A DNA stretch of 64,000 bases from Deltaproteobacteria bacterium (GTDB lineage Bacteria > UBA10199 > SPLOWO2-01-44-7), in contig JAHFSU010000003.1 of the NCBI GenBank assembly GCA_023265595.1, positions 6,178 to 70,177 on the forward strand. The letters run 5' to 3'. The translations under genes were made by a program, and so were the position numbers. Numbering within the stretch: the stretch's first letter is position 1; every line of letters begins with the position of its first letter. The notes beneath the pieces are model-generated. The model searched no databases and was not told the origin of the DNA. It worked only from the letters and a program-made list of their open reading frames with translations. Below, piece after piece: positions 3,121-62,414 of the stretch.

Positions 3121-3921
3121 ATGTCTTCAAAACCGATCGGCATCTTTGATTCCGGCGTCGGTGGATTAACGGTATTAGCCGCTATCCGCCGTCTTTTGCC
3201 GCATGAATCGCTTATTTATTTAGGCGATACCGCACGTGTGCCATATGGAAATAAATCGGCTGAAACCATTTTGAGATATGCTGAAGAATGCTGCACTTTT
3301 TTGGCCAAAAAAGGGGTGAAGGCGATTGTGATTGCTTGCAATACCGCCTCTGCCCATGCCCTTCCTTATATACAGCATCGTTTTCATTTTCCGATCTTGG
3401 GGGTTGTGGAACCGGGGGTTGAAGAGGCGTTGCGTGTGAACCAAAGCCGCCACATCGGAGTGATTGGGACTTTTGCCACTATTCAAAGCGAAATTTATGC
3501 AAAAGAATTGAAAAAGAGAAATGCTTCGGTGAGAGTCTCTTCGGTCTCCTGTCCTCTTTTTGTTCCGCTTGTGGAAGAAGATTGGTGTGACAATGAAGTG
3601 ACTCTTGCGGTGGCGGAAAAATATCTAAAAAATTTGGGAAGGGATGGAATGGATGCGCTGATCTTGGGCTGTACTCATTATCCTCTTCTTAAAAAAGTGA
3701 TCGGTGAATGTTTGGGGCCCCAAATAGCGCTAATCGATTCGGCCGAAGCAGTGGCCATTTCTCTCCAAAAGTGTTTAGCACTTTCAGCACTGAAAGCGTC
3801 AGACACTTTCGAAGGGGCGGGCGTGGAATTATATGTGACCGATTTAACGCATCGGTTTGAAACGATTGCAAGACGATTTTTAGAGGGAGATATTCCAGAG
3901 GTCAAGCGGGTTACATTATAG
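3121..3921 (+). CDS. murI: Glutamate racemase.
   Basis: IGIFDSGVGGLTV N-terminal signature and CNTAS and GCTHYPLL motifs. The ORF-track start at 3085 is probably too far upstream; the ATG at 3121 is preferred. Confidence 0.85.
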   Translation: MSSKPIGIFDSGVGGLTVLAAIRRLLPHESLIYLGDTARVPYGNKSAETILRYAEECCTFLAKKGVKAIVIACNTASAHALPYIQHRFHFPILGVVEPGVEEALRVNQSRHIGVIGTFATIQSEIYAKELKKRNASVRVSSVSCPLFVPLVEEDWCDNEVTLAVAEKYLKNLGRDGMDALILGCTHYPLLKKVIGECLGPQIALIDSAEAVAISLQKCLALSALKASDTFEGAGVELYVTDLTHRFETIARRFLEGDIPEVKRVTL

Positions 3922-8323: not shown

Positions 8324-8339
8324 TGGCACGGCACTTGCT
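8324..8339 (+). promoter_or_regulatory. Sigma-54 (RpoN) promoter TGGCACG-gcac-TTGCT.
   Basis: Exact match to the -24/-12 consensus TGGCACG-N4-TTGCW, located 27 bp upstream of the ATG at 8366. An AT-rich possible IHF region (8290-8312) and palindromes lie upstream. Confidence 0.65.
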
Positions 8340-8365: not shown

Positions 8366-10036
8366 TTGCCAAATCGTATTAAAATAACGATCGGATTTTT
8401 TAGTCTTTTGATTTTTTCTCTTCAATGGGGTTGTGGCTCCAGCACCGGTAGTGGTGGCGCCTCTGCGCAGACGGTCAGCGGGACGGGAGGCAATGAAGCA
8501 AGCTCTCCGTCCGCCATGGCGGCAGGCGATGTGATGTATGTCGGTTTTAGTGGAATTTCCGCGAGTGTCAGTTTTAGTGGTGCGAGCGGCACCTATCAAT
8601 TGTTGCTTCAGTCGCAGGCAACCGATGCCGCCTCTAAATCAGTGACCGCTTCAGATACCAATGTTTCCAAATCGATTGGCCTTGGCGATCCCTTGGTTGA
8701 TGATGTCATGAAATCAGAGTCGGAATCGGTTCAGAATCAATTGGAGGCGATATTAAGAAATGAAGAACGGTTTTTATTGAATGTCCCTTGGAATGGAAGT
8801 GTTTCACAACCGGTCTCAACAAATGGAACTGTTTCCGCCGGCAAATCGGTTGGCGGCGGTTCGGGTGTTTCTCCCTCTTTGTCGGTCAATGACAGCGATA
8901 CATTTCGTGTCTTGAAATCTCTGAGTGATGTGACCCAATATCGTACCGTTACGGCAACGGTCAAGTGTGTCAACGATACGGTGGCGATTTATGTTGATGA
9001 TGAAATTTCCAGCACCAATCCTTCTGATTTGTCGCAGGCCAATATCAATACCTTGTGTTCCGAATTTAAAGACTCGCTCGCAACGACGTCCAGCGTTTTT
9101 GGATCGTATCCGGATATCAATAATGATGGTGTAGCTGTTGCGCTGATTACGCCGGCTGTCAATCGATTAGGGGCTTCGAGCGGTGGTATCGTGACCGGTT
9201 TTTTCTATTCGGGCGATCTTTTTGCAAGAAGCAGTTCGATTCCGGCTAGTAATTATCGCGAGATTGTCTATCTTGTCTCTCCCGATTCGGGCGGTGTTTA
9301 TGGCACCAAAATTACCAATGCCTTTGCGATGTCCAACTTTTTGCCTGCTGTTTTTCCGCACGAGATGCAGCATCTGATCAATTATTACCAGCATACTATT
9401 GTCCTTAGCGGCGATGCAGAAGAGGACTGGCTCAATGAGGCCTTGTCCCATTTCACGGAAGATTTGGTTGGCTATGGTCGCGAAAATTATTCGCGCTACG
9501 ATCTCTTTTTGGATTCTCCGCAAAGTTATGCCGTCGTGACCTCTGCAAGTCCCAGTTTGGCGCAAAGGGGAGGAGGGTATCTGTTTTTGAGATATCTTTA
9601 TGAACAGAGTGGGTCGAGTTCGACATTTTTGAAAAATCTGGTGCAGACGACCAATACCGGTATCAACAACTTGGTGGCTGCTTATCCTTCGAAACCGTCC
9701 GATTTTGATTCGTTCGGTGAATTTTTAAGACGCTGGGCGGTGGCCCTTGCCTATACCAATGCAGGATTAACTACTAATTCCAAGCTCACTTACAATGCCC
9801 GAACCTATAATAACAGTACAGGCAACTGGCAGGGAGTTTGTATGATCTGTTCGGCAGAAGATGGTCGTTCGACAGTGTTGAGCGGCCCTTCTTTCGGCAC
9901 TTACAGCGCCGGAACCAGCTACACCATCAAGGCTTCTGCAACGCGGTTTTTGAATCTTTCTTCGACCCCATCTTCCTTGAGTTTGACCGGCGCCAGTGGC
10001 AGTTCCCCCGCCGCCATCATTTTGAAAACGAAGTAA
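8366..10036 (+). CDS. Secreted putative lipoprotein, Ser/Gly/Thr-rich, with an HExxH zinc-metallopeptidase motif (HEMQH).
   Basis: Signal peptide with Cys (LQWGC). FPHEMQHLINYY contains HExxH. No closer family recognised. Confidence 0.5.
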   Translation: MPNRIKITIGFFSLLIFSLQWGCGSSTGSGGASAQTVSGTGGNEASSPSAMAAGDVMYVGFSGISASVSFSGASGTYQLLLQSQATDAASKSVTASDTNVSKSIGLGDPLVDDVMKSESESVQNQLEAILRNEERFLLNVPWNGSVSQPVSTNGTVSAGKSVGGGSGVSPSLSVNDSDTFRVLKSLSDVTQYRTVTATVKCVNDTVAIYVDDEISSTNPSDLSQANINTLCSEFKDSLATTSSVFGSYPDINNDGVAVALITPAVNRLGASSGGIVTGFFYSGDLFARSSSIPASNYREIVYLVSPDSGGVYGTKITNAFAMSNFLPAVFPHEMQHLINYYQHTIVLSGDAEEDWLNEALSHFTEDLVGYGRENYSRYDLFLDSPQSYAVVTSASPSLAQRGGGYLFLRYLYEQSGSSSTFLKNLVQTTNTGINNLVAAYPSKPSDFDSFGEFLRRWAVALAYTNAGLTTNSKLTYNARTYNNSTGNWQGVCMICSAEDGRSTVLSGPSFGTYSAGTSYTIKASATRFLNLSSTPSSLSLTGASGSSPAAIILKTK

Positions 10037-21044: not shown

Positions 21045-21620
21045 TTATTGCCCCCTGAATCCGATCGCCACGAGATAAACTTCAGAAGATGTTTTTCGTG
21101 TGGCCTCCGGGATGAAAGTGACCAGTCGATCAAACGCCTTTTTCATCTCTTTTTTCAGTAATTCCATTTCTTCGCCCGGAAAAACCTTTATTACCAGATT
21201 TCCTTTTTTTTTCAAAAAGAGTTTTGCCAGTTCCCAAACCCGCACCGCCAATTCATAAGAACGATAGGTATCTCGAAAACGGATGCCGGAGAGGTCGGGA
21301 GAAAGATCGGACAAGATAGAGTCAAATTGTCGATCGAAAGTCAATGTGGGATCAAAAAGCTCCTTCTGGATGAAATCGACGTTTTGGGGCGGAGCGATTT
21401 TTAACGGAGAGCGATCGATGCCCGTAATGAAACCGTGAGGACCCACTTCTTGGGATAGAATTTGCAGCCAGCCGCCGGGGGCTGAACCCAAATCCAAAAT
21501 GGAGTTTCCCTTTTTCCAAATTTTGAATTTTTTCTCGATTTCCAAAATTTTATAGGCGGCACGGCTTGCCAATCCCTCTTTTTTGGCCTTTTTGTAGAAA
21601 TGATCTTTTCTTTCAAACAT
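21045..21620 (-). CDS. rlmE: 23S rRNA (uridine-2'-O)-methyltransferase RlmE/FtsJ.
   Basis: RSRAAYKL, DLGSAPGGWLQ and K-D-K-E motifs. The ORF-track start at 21701 is too far upstream; the Met at 21620 (MFERKDHFYKKAKKEG) fits the family N-terminus. Confidence 0.85.
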   Translation of the reverse strand: MFERKDHFYKKAKKEGLASRAAYKILEIEKKFKIWKKGNSILDLGSAPGGWLQILSQEVGPHGFITGIDRSPLKIAPPQNVDFIQKELFDPTLTFDRQFDSILSDLSPDLSGIRFRDTYRSYELAVRVWELAKLFLKKKGNLVIKVFPGEEMELLKKEMKKAFDRLVTFIPEATRKTSSEVYLVAIGFRGQ

Positions 21621-21621
21621 A

Positions 21622-21652
21622 AGCAACTTTTTTTGAAACCTGCCGATAATAG
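21622..21652 (+). promoter_or_regulatory. Copy a of the conserved promoter-like motif aaGCAACTTTTTTTGAAAcctGCCGATAAtag (CAAC-N14-GCCGATAA).
   Basis: Read directly. GCCGATAA matches the sigma-28/FliA-class -10 element. Divergent from the rlmE start. Confidence 0.5.
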
Positions 21653-21704
21653 TATTAGAGAGAAGAGGAGTCACTATTTCTTTGGGGTATAAAGTCGCCA
21701 AAAC

Positions 21705-21723
21705 AGGGGAAAATCCCCTTTTT
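21705..21723 (+). terminator. Short stem-loop AGGGGA-aaa-TCCCCT followed by TTTTT, about 50 nt downstream of motif copy a. Terminator or attenuator-like.
   Basis: Read directly. The 6-bp stem is weak. Confidence 0.3.
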
Positions 21724-21836
21724 GGGGGAGCGGCATTTGATAATTATATAGTAATTTCAATTACTTATAATTTATCCTGAGCGATTCAGTTTTGGCAACG
21801 GTTTTGCAAAGTTAAAGGGGAGCAAAAGGGGTATAT

Positions 21837-22196
21837 ATGTCTGCTATCGGCTCCGTTGGTTTGAAAAATTATGATGCCTTGCTGAAGGCGCTTTCCAGCT
21901 ATCGTCCGACTCTAAGCGGAGTCAAGGCGCTTGAGGAAGCCGCTTCCAAAGTCGACATCAATCTGAATCAGGCATTTGCAGAGGCCGGTTTGGGAAAATT
22001 CAAATCGGCTCTAAGAGGTATTAACCCGAGTCTATTCGGTTCAAAAGCGCCCGCCCTTTATCCCGGTCAAGCAGAGGTTGTTGCCGCTCTTTTTATGAAA
22101 ATTGAGAAACAAAATCCTGCCTTGGCGGGAGAACTGGCCGCAGAATGGTTTCATACCGTCGCAAAGGAGGTCCCCATTTATGGCAAGCAAAACTAA
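21837..22196 (+). CDS. Small hypothetical protein (119 aa, Ala-rich, helical).
   Basis: ORF with a GGAG-type ribosome-binding site. No known motifs. Confidence 0.45.
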   Translation: MSAIGSVGLKNYDALLKALSSYRPTLSGVKALEEAASKVDINLNQAFAEAGLGKFKSALRGINPSLFGSKAPALYPGQAEVVAALFMKIEKQNPALAGELAAEWFHTVAKEVPIYGKQN

Positions 22197-22500
22197 AAAA
22201 TGGACAAGAACCGAGGCGGTCCGTGTTTTTGAAATTTTGATGGAAAGGGGGAGCACCCTTTTTTCAAACCCCCATTTTCGCAAGCATTTAAATCGCGATG
22301 AAAACCTGTTGGCTAACCAATTTACCCGCGAGGCCAATGGGAATATCGCCTATCGTTCTGTCGATTTCAAAATTGAGGAAGAGATGACCGATAACGATTT
22401 TTGGAGCCGCATTGAAACAACACCGTATAATGATTTGATCGAAGAGAATGCCGCCATCGCTATTGTTAAAATGGCCGAAAAGCTGAAATTGGTGTCGTAA
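22181..22500 (+). CDS. Small hypothetical protein (about 106 aa).
   Basis: Starts at MASKTKKW, overlapping the previous stop by 16 nt. No known motifs. Confidence 0.4.
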
Positions 22501-22531
22501 CAATTTTTTTTTGGATTTTTTGAAAATAATT

Positions 22532-22562
22532 AGCAACTTTTTTTGAAAGTTGCCGATAACAG
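22532..22562 (+). promoter_or_regulatory. Copy b of the conserved promoter-like motif taGCAACTTTTTTTGAAAgttGCCGATAAcag.
   Basis: Read directly. Followed 30 nt later by a strong terminator. Confidence 0.5.
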
Positions 22563-22565
22563 TAG

Positions 22566-22620
22566 TGAGAGGTTTGAAAATCAAATAGACGGGGGAGCCA
22601 GAAGCTCCCCCTTTTTTATT
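22566..22620 (+). ncRNA. Candidate small RNA of about 55-60 nt, running from motif copy b to an intrinsic terminator.
   Basis: A promoter-like motif precedes it directly. The sequence is AGUAGUGAGAGG... and ends in the hairpin GGGGGAGC-cagaa-GCUCCCCC + UUUUUUAUU. It has a 5' end similar to the unit after copy a. The terminator could instead belong to the upstream ORF. Confidence 0.3.
22591..22620 (+). terminator. Rho-independent terminator GGGGGAGC-cagaa-GCTCCCCC-TTTTTTATT.
   Basis: 8-bp GC-rich perfect stem followed by a T-tract. Confidence 0.8.
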
Positions 22621-22736
22621 GGTTACGGGGCTTTTATTAGGAAAAGAGGGTTGGGGGAATCAAAAAAGTAGTATTCGCGAACAATTTTGGGGCTTTGGGG
22701 CGTTCTTTGAAACGAAAGGCACTTTTATGCGCCTTG

Positions 22737-22809
<73 letters not shown>

Positions 22810-23053: not shown

Positions 23054-23587
23054 ATGCCAAAAGGTTCACCGATGAATAGGGAGTTCAAAGTAGGGGATAT
23101 GGCTGTTTATCCGGCGCATGGGGTCGGTCAGGTTATGAGTATCGAAAACAGGGAGATTGCGGGGGCCAAAGCCCAGTTTTATATCTTGAAAATCATGGAT
23201 AGTGGGATGACGATCATGGTCCCGACCAGTAACGTTCGCAACGTCGGTTTAAGAGAGGTTATCAACGAAGATGAAGTGGAATCGGTTTATCATATTTTGC
23301 GTGAGAATGGGGAGTATGCGATCACGGAACAGACGTGGAACCGTCGTTATCGCGAATATATGGACAAAATCAAGACCGGTTCCATTTATGAAATAGCTGA
23401 GGTTTTGCGCGATCTCTCCATGCTCCGTTTTGACAAAGAGCTCTCCTTTGGTGAACGCAAGATGCTGGATACCGCCAGAAATCTCATTATCAAAGAGTTG
23501 GCTATCGCGCAGGAAGAGGAAGAGGAAGAGGTGGCAAGGGAAATTGATGGGATTTTTACCGCCAATGCCAAACCGGCCAAGTCATGA
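23054..23587 (+). CDS. carD: CarD/CdnL-family RNA-polymerase-binding transcription regulator.
   Basis: N-terminal RNAP-interacting domain signature (FKVGDxxVYPxHGVGxV...AxxxFYILKI). AGGAGG ribosome-binding site before the ATG at 23054. Confidence 0.8.
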   Translation: MPKGSPMNREFKVGDMAVYPAHGVGQVMSIENREIAGAKAQFYILKIMDSGMTIMVPTSNVRNVGLREVINEDEVESVYHILRENGEYAITEQTWNRRYREYMDKIKTGSIYEIAEVLRDLSMLRFDKELSFGERKMLDTARNLIIKELAIAQEEEEEEVAREIDGIFTANAKPAKS

Positions 23588-28100: not shown

Positions 28101-28126
28101 CAACTTTTTTGAAGCCCTGCCGATAA
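28101..28126 (+). promoter_or_regulatory. Copy c of the CAAC-N14-GCCGATAA motif (aaGCAACTTTTTTGAAGccctGCCGATAAcaa).
   Basis: Read directly. Immediately upstream of the HTH gene. Confidence 0.5.
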
Positions 28127-34238: not shown

Positions 34239-34264
34239 CAACCTTCTTGAAGGAGTGCCGATAA
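34239..34264 (+). promoter_or_regulatory. Copy f of the CAAC-N14-GCCGATAA motif (gCAACcttcttgaaggagtGCCGATAAgaag).
   Basis: Read directly. It ends 8 nt before the ATG at 34273, which implies a leaderless or near-leaderless mRNA. Confidence 0.45.
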
Positions 34265-48077: not shown

Positions 48078-48148
48078 AAGGAGGGCGTTTCGCTTCTCTA
48101 TCAAACAGCTGGACAATTTGTCCACTCTGTTTTCACCTTGATTGGAAG

Positions 48149-48174
48149 CAACTTTTTTGAAAGATTGCCGATAA
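48149..48174 (+). promoter_or_regulatory. Copy d of the CAAC-N14-GCCGATAA motif (aaGCAACTTTTTTGAAAgattGCCGATAAcag).
   Basis: Read directly. 24 nt upstream of the ATG at 48199, with an AAGGGA ribosome-binding site in between. Confidence 0.5.
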
Positions 48175-62388: not shown

Positions 62389-62414
62389 CAACTTTTTGGA
62401 AAGGCTGCCGATAA
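62389..62414 (+). promoter_or_regulatory. Copy e of the CAAC-N14-GCCGATAA motif (acaCAACTTTTTGGAAAggctGCCGATAAagg).
   Basis: Read directly. It ends 9 nt before the ATG at 62424, which implies a leaderless or near-leaderless mRNA. Confidence 0.45.

Follow-up and report, generated by a model that had tools for sequence, protein, structure and literature searches.

A candidate small RNA with a sigma-28-like promoter beside a sigma-54-type operon in uncultured bacteria

In a 64,000-nucleotide (nt) stretch of DNA from a Deltaproteobacteria bacterium (assembly GCA_023265595.1, contig JAHFSU010000003.1, positions 6,178 to 70,177 of the forward strand; the whole stretch is hereafter the window), two copies of a promoter-like motif flank a pair of short open reading frames (ORFs), ORF1 and ORF2, which lie between rlmE and the gene for tRNA-Phe. 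We call the segments headed by these copies unit a, 5' of ORF1, and unit b, 3' of ORF2. Comparison with related loci indicates that unit b (22532-22617, + strand) looks like a real, conserved gene, which would have a promoter and a terminator of its own and encode a small RNA of about 54 nt. Our best explanation for the locus as a whole, to which we assign a probability of roughly 0.5, is a control module with two sigma factors, centred on a conserved operon, in which b is a trans-acting base-pairing small RNA and a is a second promoter. The comparison involved 45 related loci, 20 from genome assemblies and 25 from metagenomes; a further sequence, L001, is a short copy of the window's own locus and not a relative. 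The sets of distinct loci differ by test, comprising 16 for promoter a, 25 for the b cores, 34 for the ORF2 terminator and 35 for the upstream palindrome described below. The 102 ORF2 homologues retrieved all come from uncultured bacteria, the named ones being labelled Deltaproteobacteria, Pseudomonadota or simply 'bacterium'.

Unit b: promoter, predicted RNA and terminator

Promoter copy b (22532-22559, + strand) comprises a -35 pentamer, GCAAC, at 22533-22537 and a -10 element, GCCGATAA, at 22552-22559. The predicted RNA that follows (22564-22617, + strand) consists of a putative seed, AGUGAGAGG, an A-rich linker, a hairpin whose 5' arm is GGGGGAGC, and a U6 tail. This hairpin, GGGGGAGC-cagaa-GCTCCCCC followed by TTTTTT, constitutes terminator b (22591-22617, + strand; stem 22591-22598 with 22604-22611, U-tract 22612-22617), folds with -17.8 kcal/mol (z = -3.3) and was recovered by the terminator scan, in agreement with the strong terminator claimed here by an earlier, sequence-only reading of this DNA; it also scores as terminator-like on the - strand. 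Unit b thus has the GC-rich stem-loop, U-tract and compensatory changes (below) of an intrinsic terminator, and the predicted single-stranded seed and hairpin with a U-tail of at least five residues that are typical of a base-pairing (Hfq-type) small RNA.

A b promoter is present 3' of the ORF2 homologue in 41 of the 45 related loci. Among the four exceptions, one contig stops at ORF2; in L008 an inserted ORF intervenes, and a b-like promoter and RNA are found approximately 1 kb downstream, next to an apparent tRNA gene; L009 gives a weak covariance-model match (E = 0.14) at the equivalent position; and in L012 a b-like unit was not found. Within the promoter, all 25 distinct loci keep the residues C-A-A-C and C-G-A-T-A unchanged, including those in which ORF2 is just 45% identical, and in 24 of the 25 distinct b cores the promoter is followed by a hairpin (-14 to -30 kcal/mol) and a U-tract. 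The predicted RNAs of the relatives range from 38 to 73 nt and begin with the consensus AGUGRRDGG, which is predicted to be unpaired and in which U3 (23/23), G4 (21/23) and G8 (22/23) are nearly constant; the linker is variable (41% A), and the U-tail, named by the sequence-only reading as an Hfq-type feature to look for, has a median length of 5 among relatives against 6 in the window. The joint conservation of promoter, 5' end and terminator in 41 of the 45 related loci supports the earlier proposal of a free-standing small RNA under an alternative-sigma motif, and the similarity then noted between the predicted 5' ends of a and b is likewise real and recurs across loci.

The predicted structure was examined with a covariance model of b (R1), built from 20 sequences. 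Its only strong match in the window is 22564-22617 (50.1 bits, E = 3e-9), and in the relatives it yields 23 + strand matches at E < 0.003. In an alignment fitted to the model's own structure, a procedure that qualifies what follows, 90.6% of cells pair, compared with 59-70% when partners are slid by 1-3 columns, and the covariation score of the stem was reached by none of 500 shuffles; a covariation analysis of homologous loci had been proposed as a check by the sequence-only reading. Independent folds of the individual sequences agree, with flanking stem pairs that covary (CG, UA, AU, GC). Three of the nine stem pairs change on both sides, and 22 stem cells are G-U, i.e. C-A mismatches on the opposite strand, which shows the + strand RNA to be under selection. 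Changes are confined almost entirely to the 3' arm, where C is replaced by U, and the 5' arm GGGGGAGC is practically constant.

Whether this terminator is merely the 3' end of the ORF1-ORF2 mRNA, as the sequence-only reading had itself asked, receives a negative answer from the relatives. In 17 of 34 distinct loci the ORF2 stop codon is followed by a hairpin with a T-tract (-13 kcal/mol or stronger in 14 of them) before the b promoter is reached, giving the order terminator, promoter, short RNA, terminator; since half of the distinct loci possess a separate ORF2 terminator 5' of the b promoter, b would be an independent unit. In the window about 32-33 nt separate the ORF2 stop from the b promoter. 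Counting the closest relatives as well, this gap spans 4-35 nt and has no strong terminator in any of them, so that in all of these loci, the window included, the ORF1-ORF2 mRNA probably also ends at the b terminator.

Searches against known RNA families placed b in none of them. With Rfam 15, at gathering and permissive thresholds, only tRNA-Phe passed any threshold in the window and 14 relatives; window matches listed up to E = 10 all scored well short of the gathering cut-offs of their families, and a search of the loci of three relatives at E <= 0.5 returned tRNA only. Small ORFs inside a or b were also considered, and rejected because the frames, read by eye across loci, are not conserved.

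Promoters on the 5' side of ORF1

The two motif copies, at 21622-21649 (a) and 22532-22559 (b), can be written AGCAACTTTTTTTGAAA(CC/GT)TGCCGATAA. A search pattern in which the two spacer positions that differ between them were left free, AGCAACTTTTTTTGAAAnnTGCCGATAA, matches both without mismatch where shuffled sequences give an expectation of 0, substantiating the two copies on which the sequence-only reading was built; a further copy, at 48147, has three mismatches to it. In the window, the looser form CAAC-N16-CGATAM is present in six copies, always on the + strand, against 0.24 expected, and GCCGATAA alone is found 12 times against 2.5. The four additional copies, all on the + strand, lie 7-24 nt 5' of ORF start codons, such that the leaders would be very short or absent, and front a helix-turn-helix (HTH) protein (copy 28101-28126, start 28134), a 1096-amino-acid CarboxypepD_reg-domain protein (34239-34264, start 34273), a methyltransferase-domain protein (48149-48174, start 48199) and a HAMP-GAF-GGDEF protein (62389-62414, start 62424), all of them non-flagellar. 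Because these copies precede start codons, and because that at 62389 lies in the 62 nt that separate two divergent genes, a stretch that has to contain a promoter, we take the motif to be a promoter. The copy at 34239 stands at the start of a run of genes for large secreted-type proteins (PD40, SLT/TPR, PKD).

The sigma-28 consensus is TAAAGTTT-N11-GCCGATAA, i.e. a -35 element TAAA(G) about 15 nt from CCGATA, counted from the pentamer. The window copies contain the exact -10 element GCCGATAA, at 21642 and 22552, whose CGATA core is the invariant one noted above, and when written as GCAAC-N15-CCGATAA they display a 15-nt spacing between pentamer and -10 element that fits sigma-28. Several inverted repeats overlap this promoter. 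In the window, copy b (22533-22553) is a perfect inverted repeat, GCAACTTT-ttttg-AAAGTTGC, which is found neither in copy a nor in relatives and which the terminator scan flagged as terminator-like on the - strand. Several relatives (L020, at 3355-3395, L004, L013, L044 and L045) have a repeat across the b -10 box, with one arm on its left, in the promoter spacer, and the other on its right, around positions +10 to +20 of RNA b; the arms vary by locus, being for example GCCCTGTGCC/GGCACAGGGC in L020, and the repeat looks like either covariation in a read-through transcript or an operator. In L033, L035, L039 and L040 a third CAAC-N16-CGATA copy stands at the end of the intergenic region, pointing into the tRNA-Phe terminator and convergent with the tRNA.

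Promoter copy a (21622-21649, + strand; -35 GCAAC 21623-21627, -10 GCCGATAA 21642-21649) abuts rlmE, whose start codon (21618-21620, - strand) is 2 nt from the motif. The predicted transcript (21655-21723, + strand, the start being a prediction) would begin with purine-rich UUAGAGAGAAGAGGAGUC and continue through UUUGGGG and a weak hairpin to T5; RNA from this promoter would run antisense to rlmE over its promoter and 5' region. The hairpin described by the sequence-only reading, AGGGGA-aaa-TCCCCT with a T-run (21705-21723, + strand; stem 21705-21719), is present but weak: its folding energy is -8.6 to -9.0 kcal/mol (z = -1.5) and is matched by 15 of 200 shuffles, the predicted transcript as a whole gives z = -1.2, and the terminator scan did not list the hairpin because only four T remain after the stem. 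In the relatives, promoter a (CAAC...CGATA) is found 5' of the sigma-54 promoter (see below) in 16 distinct loci, usually 141-154 nt away, with a hairpin and T-tract in only five, at differing positions and convincing in three (the stronger ones include L024, -17.1 kcal/mol, and L026, -15.9 kcal/mol); no counterpart of the window hairpin was seen at its position in the close relatives inspected. The relatives' predicted a transcripts also start purine-rich, with AUAGAGAG, AUAGAUGG or AAUGGGAGAGGG, and GGGAGUC...UUUGGGG recurs in the closest of them (L002, L003, L006, L023, L026).

The covariance model of b found no match in 21600-21840 even at E <= 10, which tells against unit a as a homologue of b. 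The two have in common only the promoter and a purine-rich start, and a common origin can be credited only to the promoter and about a dozen bases after it; the description of a as a paralogous promoter-plus-terminator unit is accordingly not sustained. Nor is a the usual kind of leader attenuator for ORF1, the other role suggested for it, since a sigma-54-type promoter that had been missed lies 3' of the hairpin, between it and ORF1. Promoter a is best read as a distal second promoter that would run through the enhancer region of the sigma-54 promoter towards ORF1-ORF2, and in the window some a RNA may stop at the weak hairpin.

The sigma-54-type promoter, TGGCAACGGTTTTGCA (21793-21808, + strand), lies 28 nt 5' of the ORF1 start codon. 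The strict form TGGCA-N6-TTGCA occurs once per locus, on the + strand and at the equivalent position, in 30 loci (29 relatives and L001), and looser sigma-54-type forms are found in further loci; nearly all loci examined thus have such a promoter before ORF1. Both the -24 GG/-12 GC elements of a sigma-54 promoter and putative upstream activator sites are in place, the upstream site in the window being an imperfect palindrome, GGGGTATAAAGTCGCC (GGGG-N8-CGCC, 21684-21699), which starts 109 bp 5' of the -24 element and is a candidate enhancer site. Upstream of the sigma-54 promoter, GGGG-N8-C[CGA][CT]C is present in 27 of 35 distinct loci, against approximately 0.016 expected per 90 nt, and starts at -106 to -109 in 17 of them and at -88/-89 in seven, i.e. 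at two positions two helical turns apart (24 of 35 loci with a phased palindrome at -108 or -88). The 8-nt spacer is fixed in length, neither conserved nor self-complementary, and the palindrome keeps its distance to the sigma-54 promoter also in loci that have no promoter a; for these reasons, and given its helical phasing, we regard it as a probable protein-binding enhancer site at the DNA level, and an RNA hairpin formed by the GGGG...CCCC element is disfavoured on the same grounds. Hairpin a directly follows the palindrome, its GGGG falling at -87, where another clade has the palindrome, so that hairpin a looks as though it sits within the enhancer region. A conserved AT-rich block is visible between palindrome and promoter; the strict consensus of integration host factor (IHF) occurs in only five of 35 loci, and we claim no IHF site there. 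Elsewhere in the window, a second sigma-54-like site, TGGCACGGCACTTGCT (8324-8339), stands 27 nt 5' of a 556-amino-acid ORF (8366-10036) that gave no Pfam match.

Proposed mechanism and competing explanations

In the mechanism that we favour, the sigma-54-type promoter would drive ORF1-ORF2 with the help of the palindrome at a helically phased -108 or -88, and the two sigma-28 (FliA)-like promoters would be overlaid on this operon. Copy b would produce a free-standing RNA of about 54 nt ending at a strong intrinsic terminator that in the window it shares with the operon mRNA, which is the layout of a 3' untranslated region (UTR) small RNA with its own promoter. This RNA would act in trans, its single-stranded purine-rich 5' end serving as a seed for pyrimidine-rich targets and its A-rich linker and U-tail as chaperone-binding and stability elements. 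Copy a would give a long alternative leader with a similar 5' end and no conserved terminator, i.e. a sigma-28-type entry into the sigma-54 operon.

A number of observations weigh against this mechanism. The start sites and 3' ends of a and b are predictions, the sigma-factor identity, targets, chaperone and mode of action of b are inferred, and read-through-independent initiation at the window's copy b is suggested by its relatives only. The pentamer GCAAC has only its central AA in common with the sigma-28 consensus, and is similar as well to the AAC motif that typifies extracytoplasmic function (ECF) sigma factors, so that the sigma factor cannot be assigned with certainty; moreover, none of the 30 window proteins scanned is a flagellar protein, FliA or another sigma factor. 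The putative seed differs by clade (GAGAGG, GGAUGG, GGAGGG), such that any target would have to co-vary, and no recurrent site complementary to it was found within the loci. One candidate, pairing of GGAUGG with CCAUCC, was rejected because the latter falls on conserved His-Pro codons of ORF2 in a single clade. The invariance of GGGGGAGC exceeds what a terminator needs and is not explained by pairing of the 5' end, and the G-rich, GGGAG-rich homologous regions described below point as much to a protein-binding role. Purine-rich 5' stabiliser elements of the STAB-SD type exist in Bacillus, and by analogy the purine-rich, Shine-Dalgarno-like 5' stretch of b may alternatively act as a 5' stabiliser.

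A wider G-rich theme is seen between the b promoter and tRNA-Phe. In the window the trailing region 22618-22735 (+ strand) contains GAGGGUUGGGGG, UUUUGGGGCUUUGGGGC and GUUCUUUGAAA, and includes at its right end the - strand terminator of tRNA-Phe; it shows no significant fold (z = +0.6) and looks like a degenerate remnant of longer structured RNAs of other clades. The window interval from ORF2 to the tRNA (22501-22735) has five GGGG runs against one CCCC run, and across loci the region from b promoter to tRNA-Phe has 104 G runs of at least four against 30 C runs, the former reaching about 10 times their density in ORF2. The frequency of GGGAG is 9.6 per kb in b regions and 1.3 per kb in the flanks, and its strand bias is 70 to 13 in favour of the + strand. 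Eight relatives (L006, L033, L039, L040, L032, L035, L038 and L044) have longer G-rich RNAs at the b position, for which no Rfam match was obtained. L006 (990-1130) has nine GGGAG repeats, mostly GGGAGUC, directly 3' of the b promoter, and L033, L039 and L044 have five each. In L033, L039 and L040 the promoter leads straight into a structured RNA of about 220 nt without an early hairpin, which includes a hairpin with a GGGUUAGGG loop on covarying purine/pyrimidine stems and, enclosing GGGGAG motifs, a stem of the form CAUCGUG...CACGAUG, followed by a distal terminator and then by GUUCUUUGAAA. This last element (22700-22712 in the window) follows the distal terminator near the 3' side of tRNA-Phe in L002, L003, L006, L016, L018, L028, L033, L039 and L040, and is also seen inside the a-type leaders of L040, L041 and L044. 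Four of the 13 window copies of GGGGAGC lie on the + strand within this 900-bp locus (21725, 21817, 22248 and 22592), one of them in the ORF1 5' UTR and one inside ORF2.

The G-rich theme and the invariant GGGGGAGC arm are the main reasons for keeping two rival explanations of b. One holds that b is a protein decoy or sponge, whose GGGGAG, GGGAGUC, GGGUUAGGG and UUUGGGG elements bind and titrate a regulatory RNA-binding protein (perhaps one like CsrA, or the products of ORF1 and ORF2), and that the window's b could be a minimal, one-site version of the relatives' arrays. The enrichment and strand bias of GGGAG, the density of G runs relative to adjacent coding sequence, the arrays in L006, L033, L039 and L044, the clustering of GGGGAGC in this locus and the constancy of the GGGGGAGC arm whilst the 3' arm drifts from C to U all accord with such a role. 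Csr-type sites, however, are GGA motifs in loops, whereas the only GGGAG of the window b region is hidden in a stem, so that b does not qualify as a Csr/Rsm sponge; a regular-expression scan of six-frame translations found no csrA-like ORF in the window or in any fetched locus, and the ORF2 product lacks both a basic character and any known RNA-binding fold. On balance we think a decoy unlikely, albeit worth keeping in view. The other holds that the terminator is conditional: its GGGGGAGC arm would be held by a factor or by alternative pairing, allowing read-through into the G-rich modules, and the 54-nt RNA would be the 'off' product. Sequence is indeed conserved past the U-tract in many loci (the GGGUUAGGG-loop hairpin, distal terminator and GUUCUUUGAAA), in L016 the GGGGGAGC hairpin has no U-tract and the terminator is further downstream, and the 220-nt RNAs of L033, L039 and L040 could be read in the same way; but the b terminator is strong, no conserved antiterminator partner for the 5' arm is seen in the A/G-rich sequence upstream, and in the window the sequence beyond the terminator has neither a 3' arm for the GGGUUAGGG hairpin nor a significant fold, which together make this explanation doubtful. 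A broader and equally speculative possibility, to which we give little weight, is a lineage-wide ribonucleoprotein switch in which b, the a leader and the relatives' GGGAG/GGGUUAGGG arrays titrate a regulator that recognises GGGGAG, possibly ORF1/ORF2. If true, this switch would couple a sigma-54-controlled operon to sigma-28 activity, and would represent a Csr/Rsm-like sponge system based on a different motif and protein, in a lineage without cultured members among the retrieved sequences.

Two further alternatives concern the existence of the RNAs themselves. That no independent b RNA is made, the hairpin at 22591 serving only to end the ORF1-ORF2 mRNA or acting bidirectionally with tRNA-Phe and the motif being silent or incidental, would agree with the 33 nt between ORF2 stop and motif in the window, devoid of a strong terminator, and with the terminator-like score of hairpin b on the - strand. 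The invariance of the promoter residues even in divergent loci, the prior ORF2 terminator in half of the distinct loci, the b unit of L008 far from ORF2, and the G-U cells of the stem all argue to the contrary, and we consider this explanation highly improbable. The proposal that unit a makes a homologue of b, in the form of a separate small RNA of about 70 nt that ends at 21723, draws on its identical promoter and similar purine-rich 5' end, on the conservation of GGGAGUC...UUUGGGG in the closest relatives, and on the hairpin with T5 in the window, stronger hairpins being present in L024 and L026. Against it stand the weakness of that hairpin, which failed the scan and is absent from 11 of 16 loci, the lack of a covariance-model match in region a, and the fixed position of GGGG-N8-CCCC even where promoter a is absent, indicative of a DNA-level enhancer; we consider it improbable, and unit a does not qualify as an intrinsic terminator unit by either its energy or its distribution.

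Genomic setting and relation to known systems

The locus has the gene order rlmE (-), unit a, ORF1, ORF2, unit b, tRNA-Phe (-), carD, ispD, ispF, cysS, and the remainder of the window comprises housekeeping genes. ORF1 (21837-22196, + strand) encodes 119 and ORF2 (22180-22500, + strand) 106 amino acids; both had been recognised by the sequence-only reading, which placed the second start one base too far right. It had correctly noted tRNA-Phe on the - strand (22736-22809) and no + strand gene close behind unit b, the next being carD, which starts only at 23054. An ORF of 100-160 amino acids occupies the ORF1 position in every locus, and tblastn found no relative of ORF1 because it is too divergent: mean column identity is 19%, compared with 70% for the overlapping or abutting ORF2, whose alignment has 24 invariant columns. 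Many ORF1 counterparts share an MISGG start, a central LF(G/A)xxAP-like motif and a C-terminal amphipathic helix. Neither protein gave a convincing match in Pfam or NCBIfam; four ORF1 homologues match FliG_M weakly (E >= 0.065), the anti-sigma factor FlgM was rejected as an identity for ORF1 and a known chaperone or RNA binder as one for ORF2 for want of matches in these databases, and the AlphaFold2 model of ORF2 is all-helical and of low confidence (predicted local distance difference test score 69, predicted template modelling score 0.35).

Of known regulatory systems, the Csr/Rsm RNAs CsrB, RsmY and RsmZ resemble the relatives L006 and L033 in repeating G-rich, GGA-containing motifs on one strand, but differ in that the motif here is GGGAG(U/C), is often in stems rather than loops and has one copy in the window b; the Rfam Csr/Rsm models gave no match and no csrA was seen nearby. 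If GGGGAG proved to bind a protein, the locus would define a new RNA-protein regulatory pair. With classical sigma-54 architecture the locus shares TGGCA-N6-TTGCA 28 nt 5' of ORF1 and a palindrome at -108 or -88; unlike that architecture, it has a sigma-28-type promoter that would transcribe through the putative enhancer, and a strict IHF consensus in the minority of loci given above.

The E. coli sigma-28-dependent small RNAs UhpU, MotR, FliX and FlgO, of which UhpU derives from the 3' UTR of a metabolic gene (PMC10578931), provide the closest parallel in layout, being short RNAs from FliA-type promoters within or abutting their neighbours' UTRs; like UhpU, b would lie at a 3' end, namely that of ORF2, where it would be transcribed from a separate promoter and share its terminator with the ORF1-ORF2 mRNA. 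In contrast to the E. coli set, b has no sequence or Rfam similarity to it, its host is uncultured, its -35 element differs and the window offers no flagellar context. In Campylobacter jejuni, CJnc230 is RpoN-dependent and CJnc170 FliA-dependent (PMC11187230). That pair is comparable in that small RNAs are tied to a sigma-54-then-sigma-28 hierarchy, one of them directly 3' of a sigma-54-dependent gene; it is unlike b, which has a sigma-28-type promoter and would not be processed from a sigma-54 transcript, and no flagellar genes or flgM were identified in the window, ORF1 having no FlgM match. The window motif also resembles the FliA motif of Bdellovibrio bacteriovorus, TTAAG-N16-CCGATA, which controls most attack-phase genes, many non-flagellar genes and three small RNAs (PMC3627812). 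The likeness extends to the common form (xxAAx, about 15-16 nt, CCGATA) and to its use beyond flagellar genes, including for small RNAs; the -35 pentamer differs, being GCAAC here and TTAAG in Bdellovibrio.

Sigma-28-dependent small RNAs being known in E. coli, Campylobacter and Bdellovibrio, the kind of RNA is not new. The b family itself is without an Rfam entry, is restricted to an uncultured lineage and has an unusual, invariant terminator arm, and it offers a testable small RNA family (promoter, seed, terminator, covariance model and more than 40 instances) for bacteria known here only from metagenomes. The layout, in which two sigma-28-type promoters flank a sigma-54 operon and one of them would transcribe through its enhancer, is also unusual, whilst a FliA-type promoter motif that fronts both non-flagellar genes and non-coding RNA is a feature that this lineage would share with Bdellovibrio.

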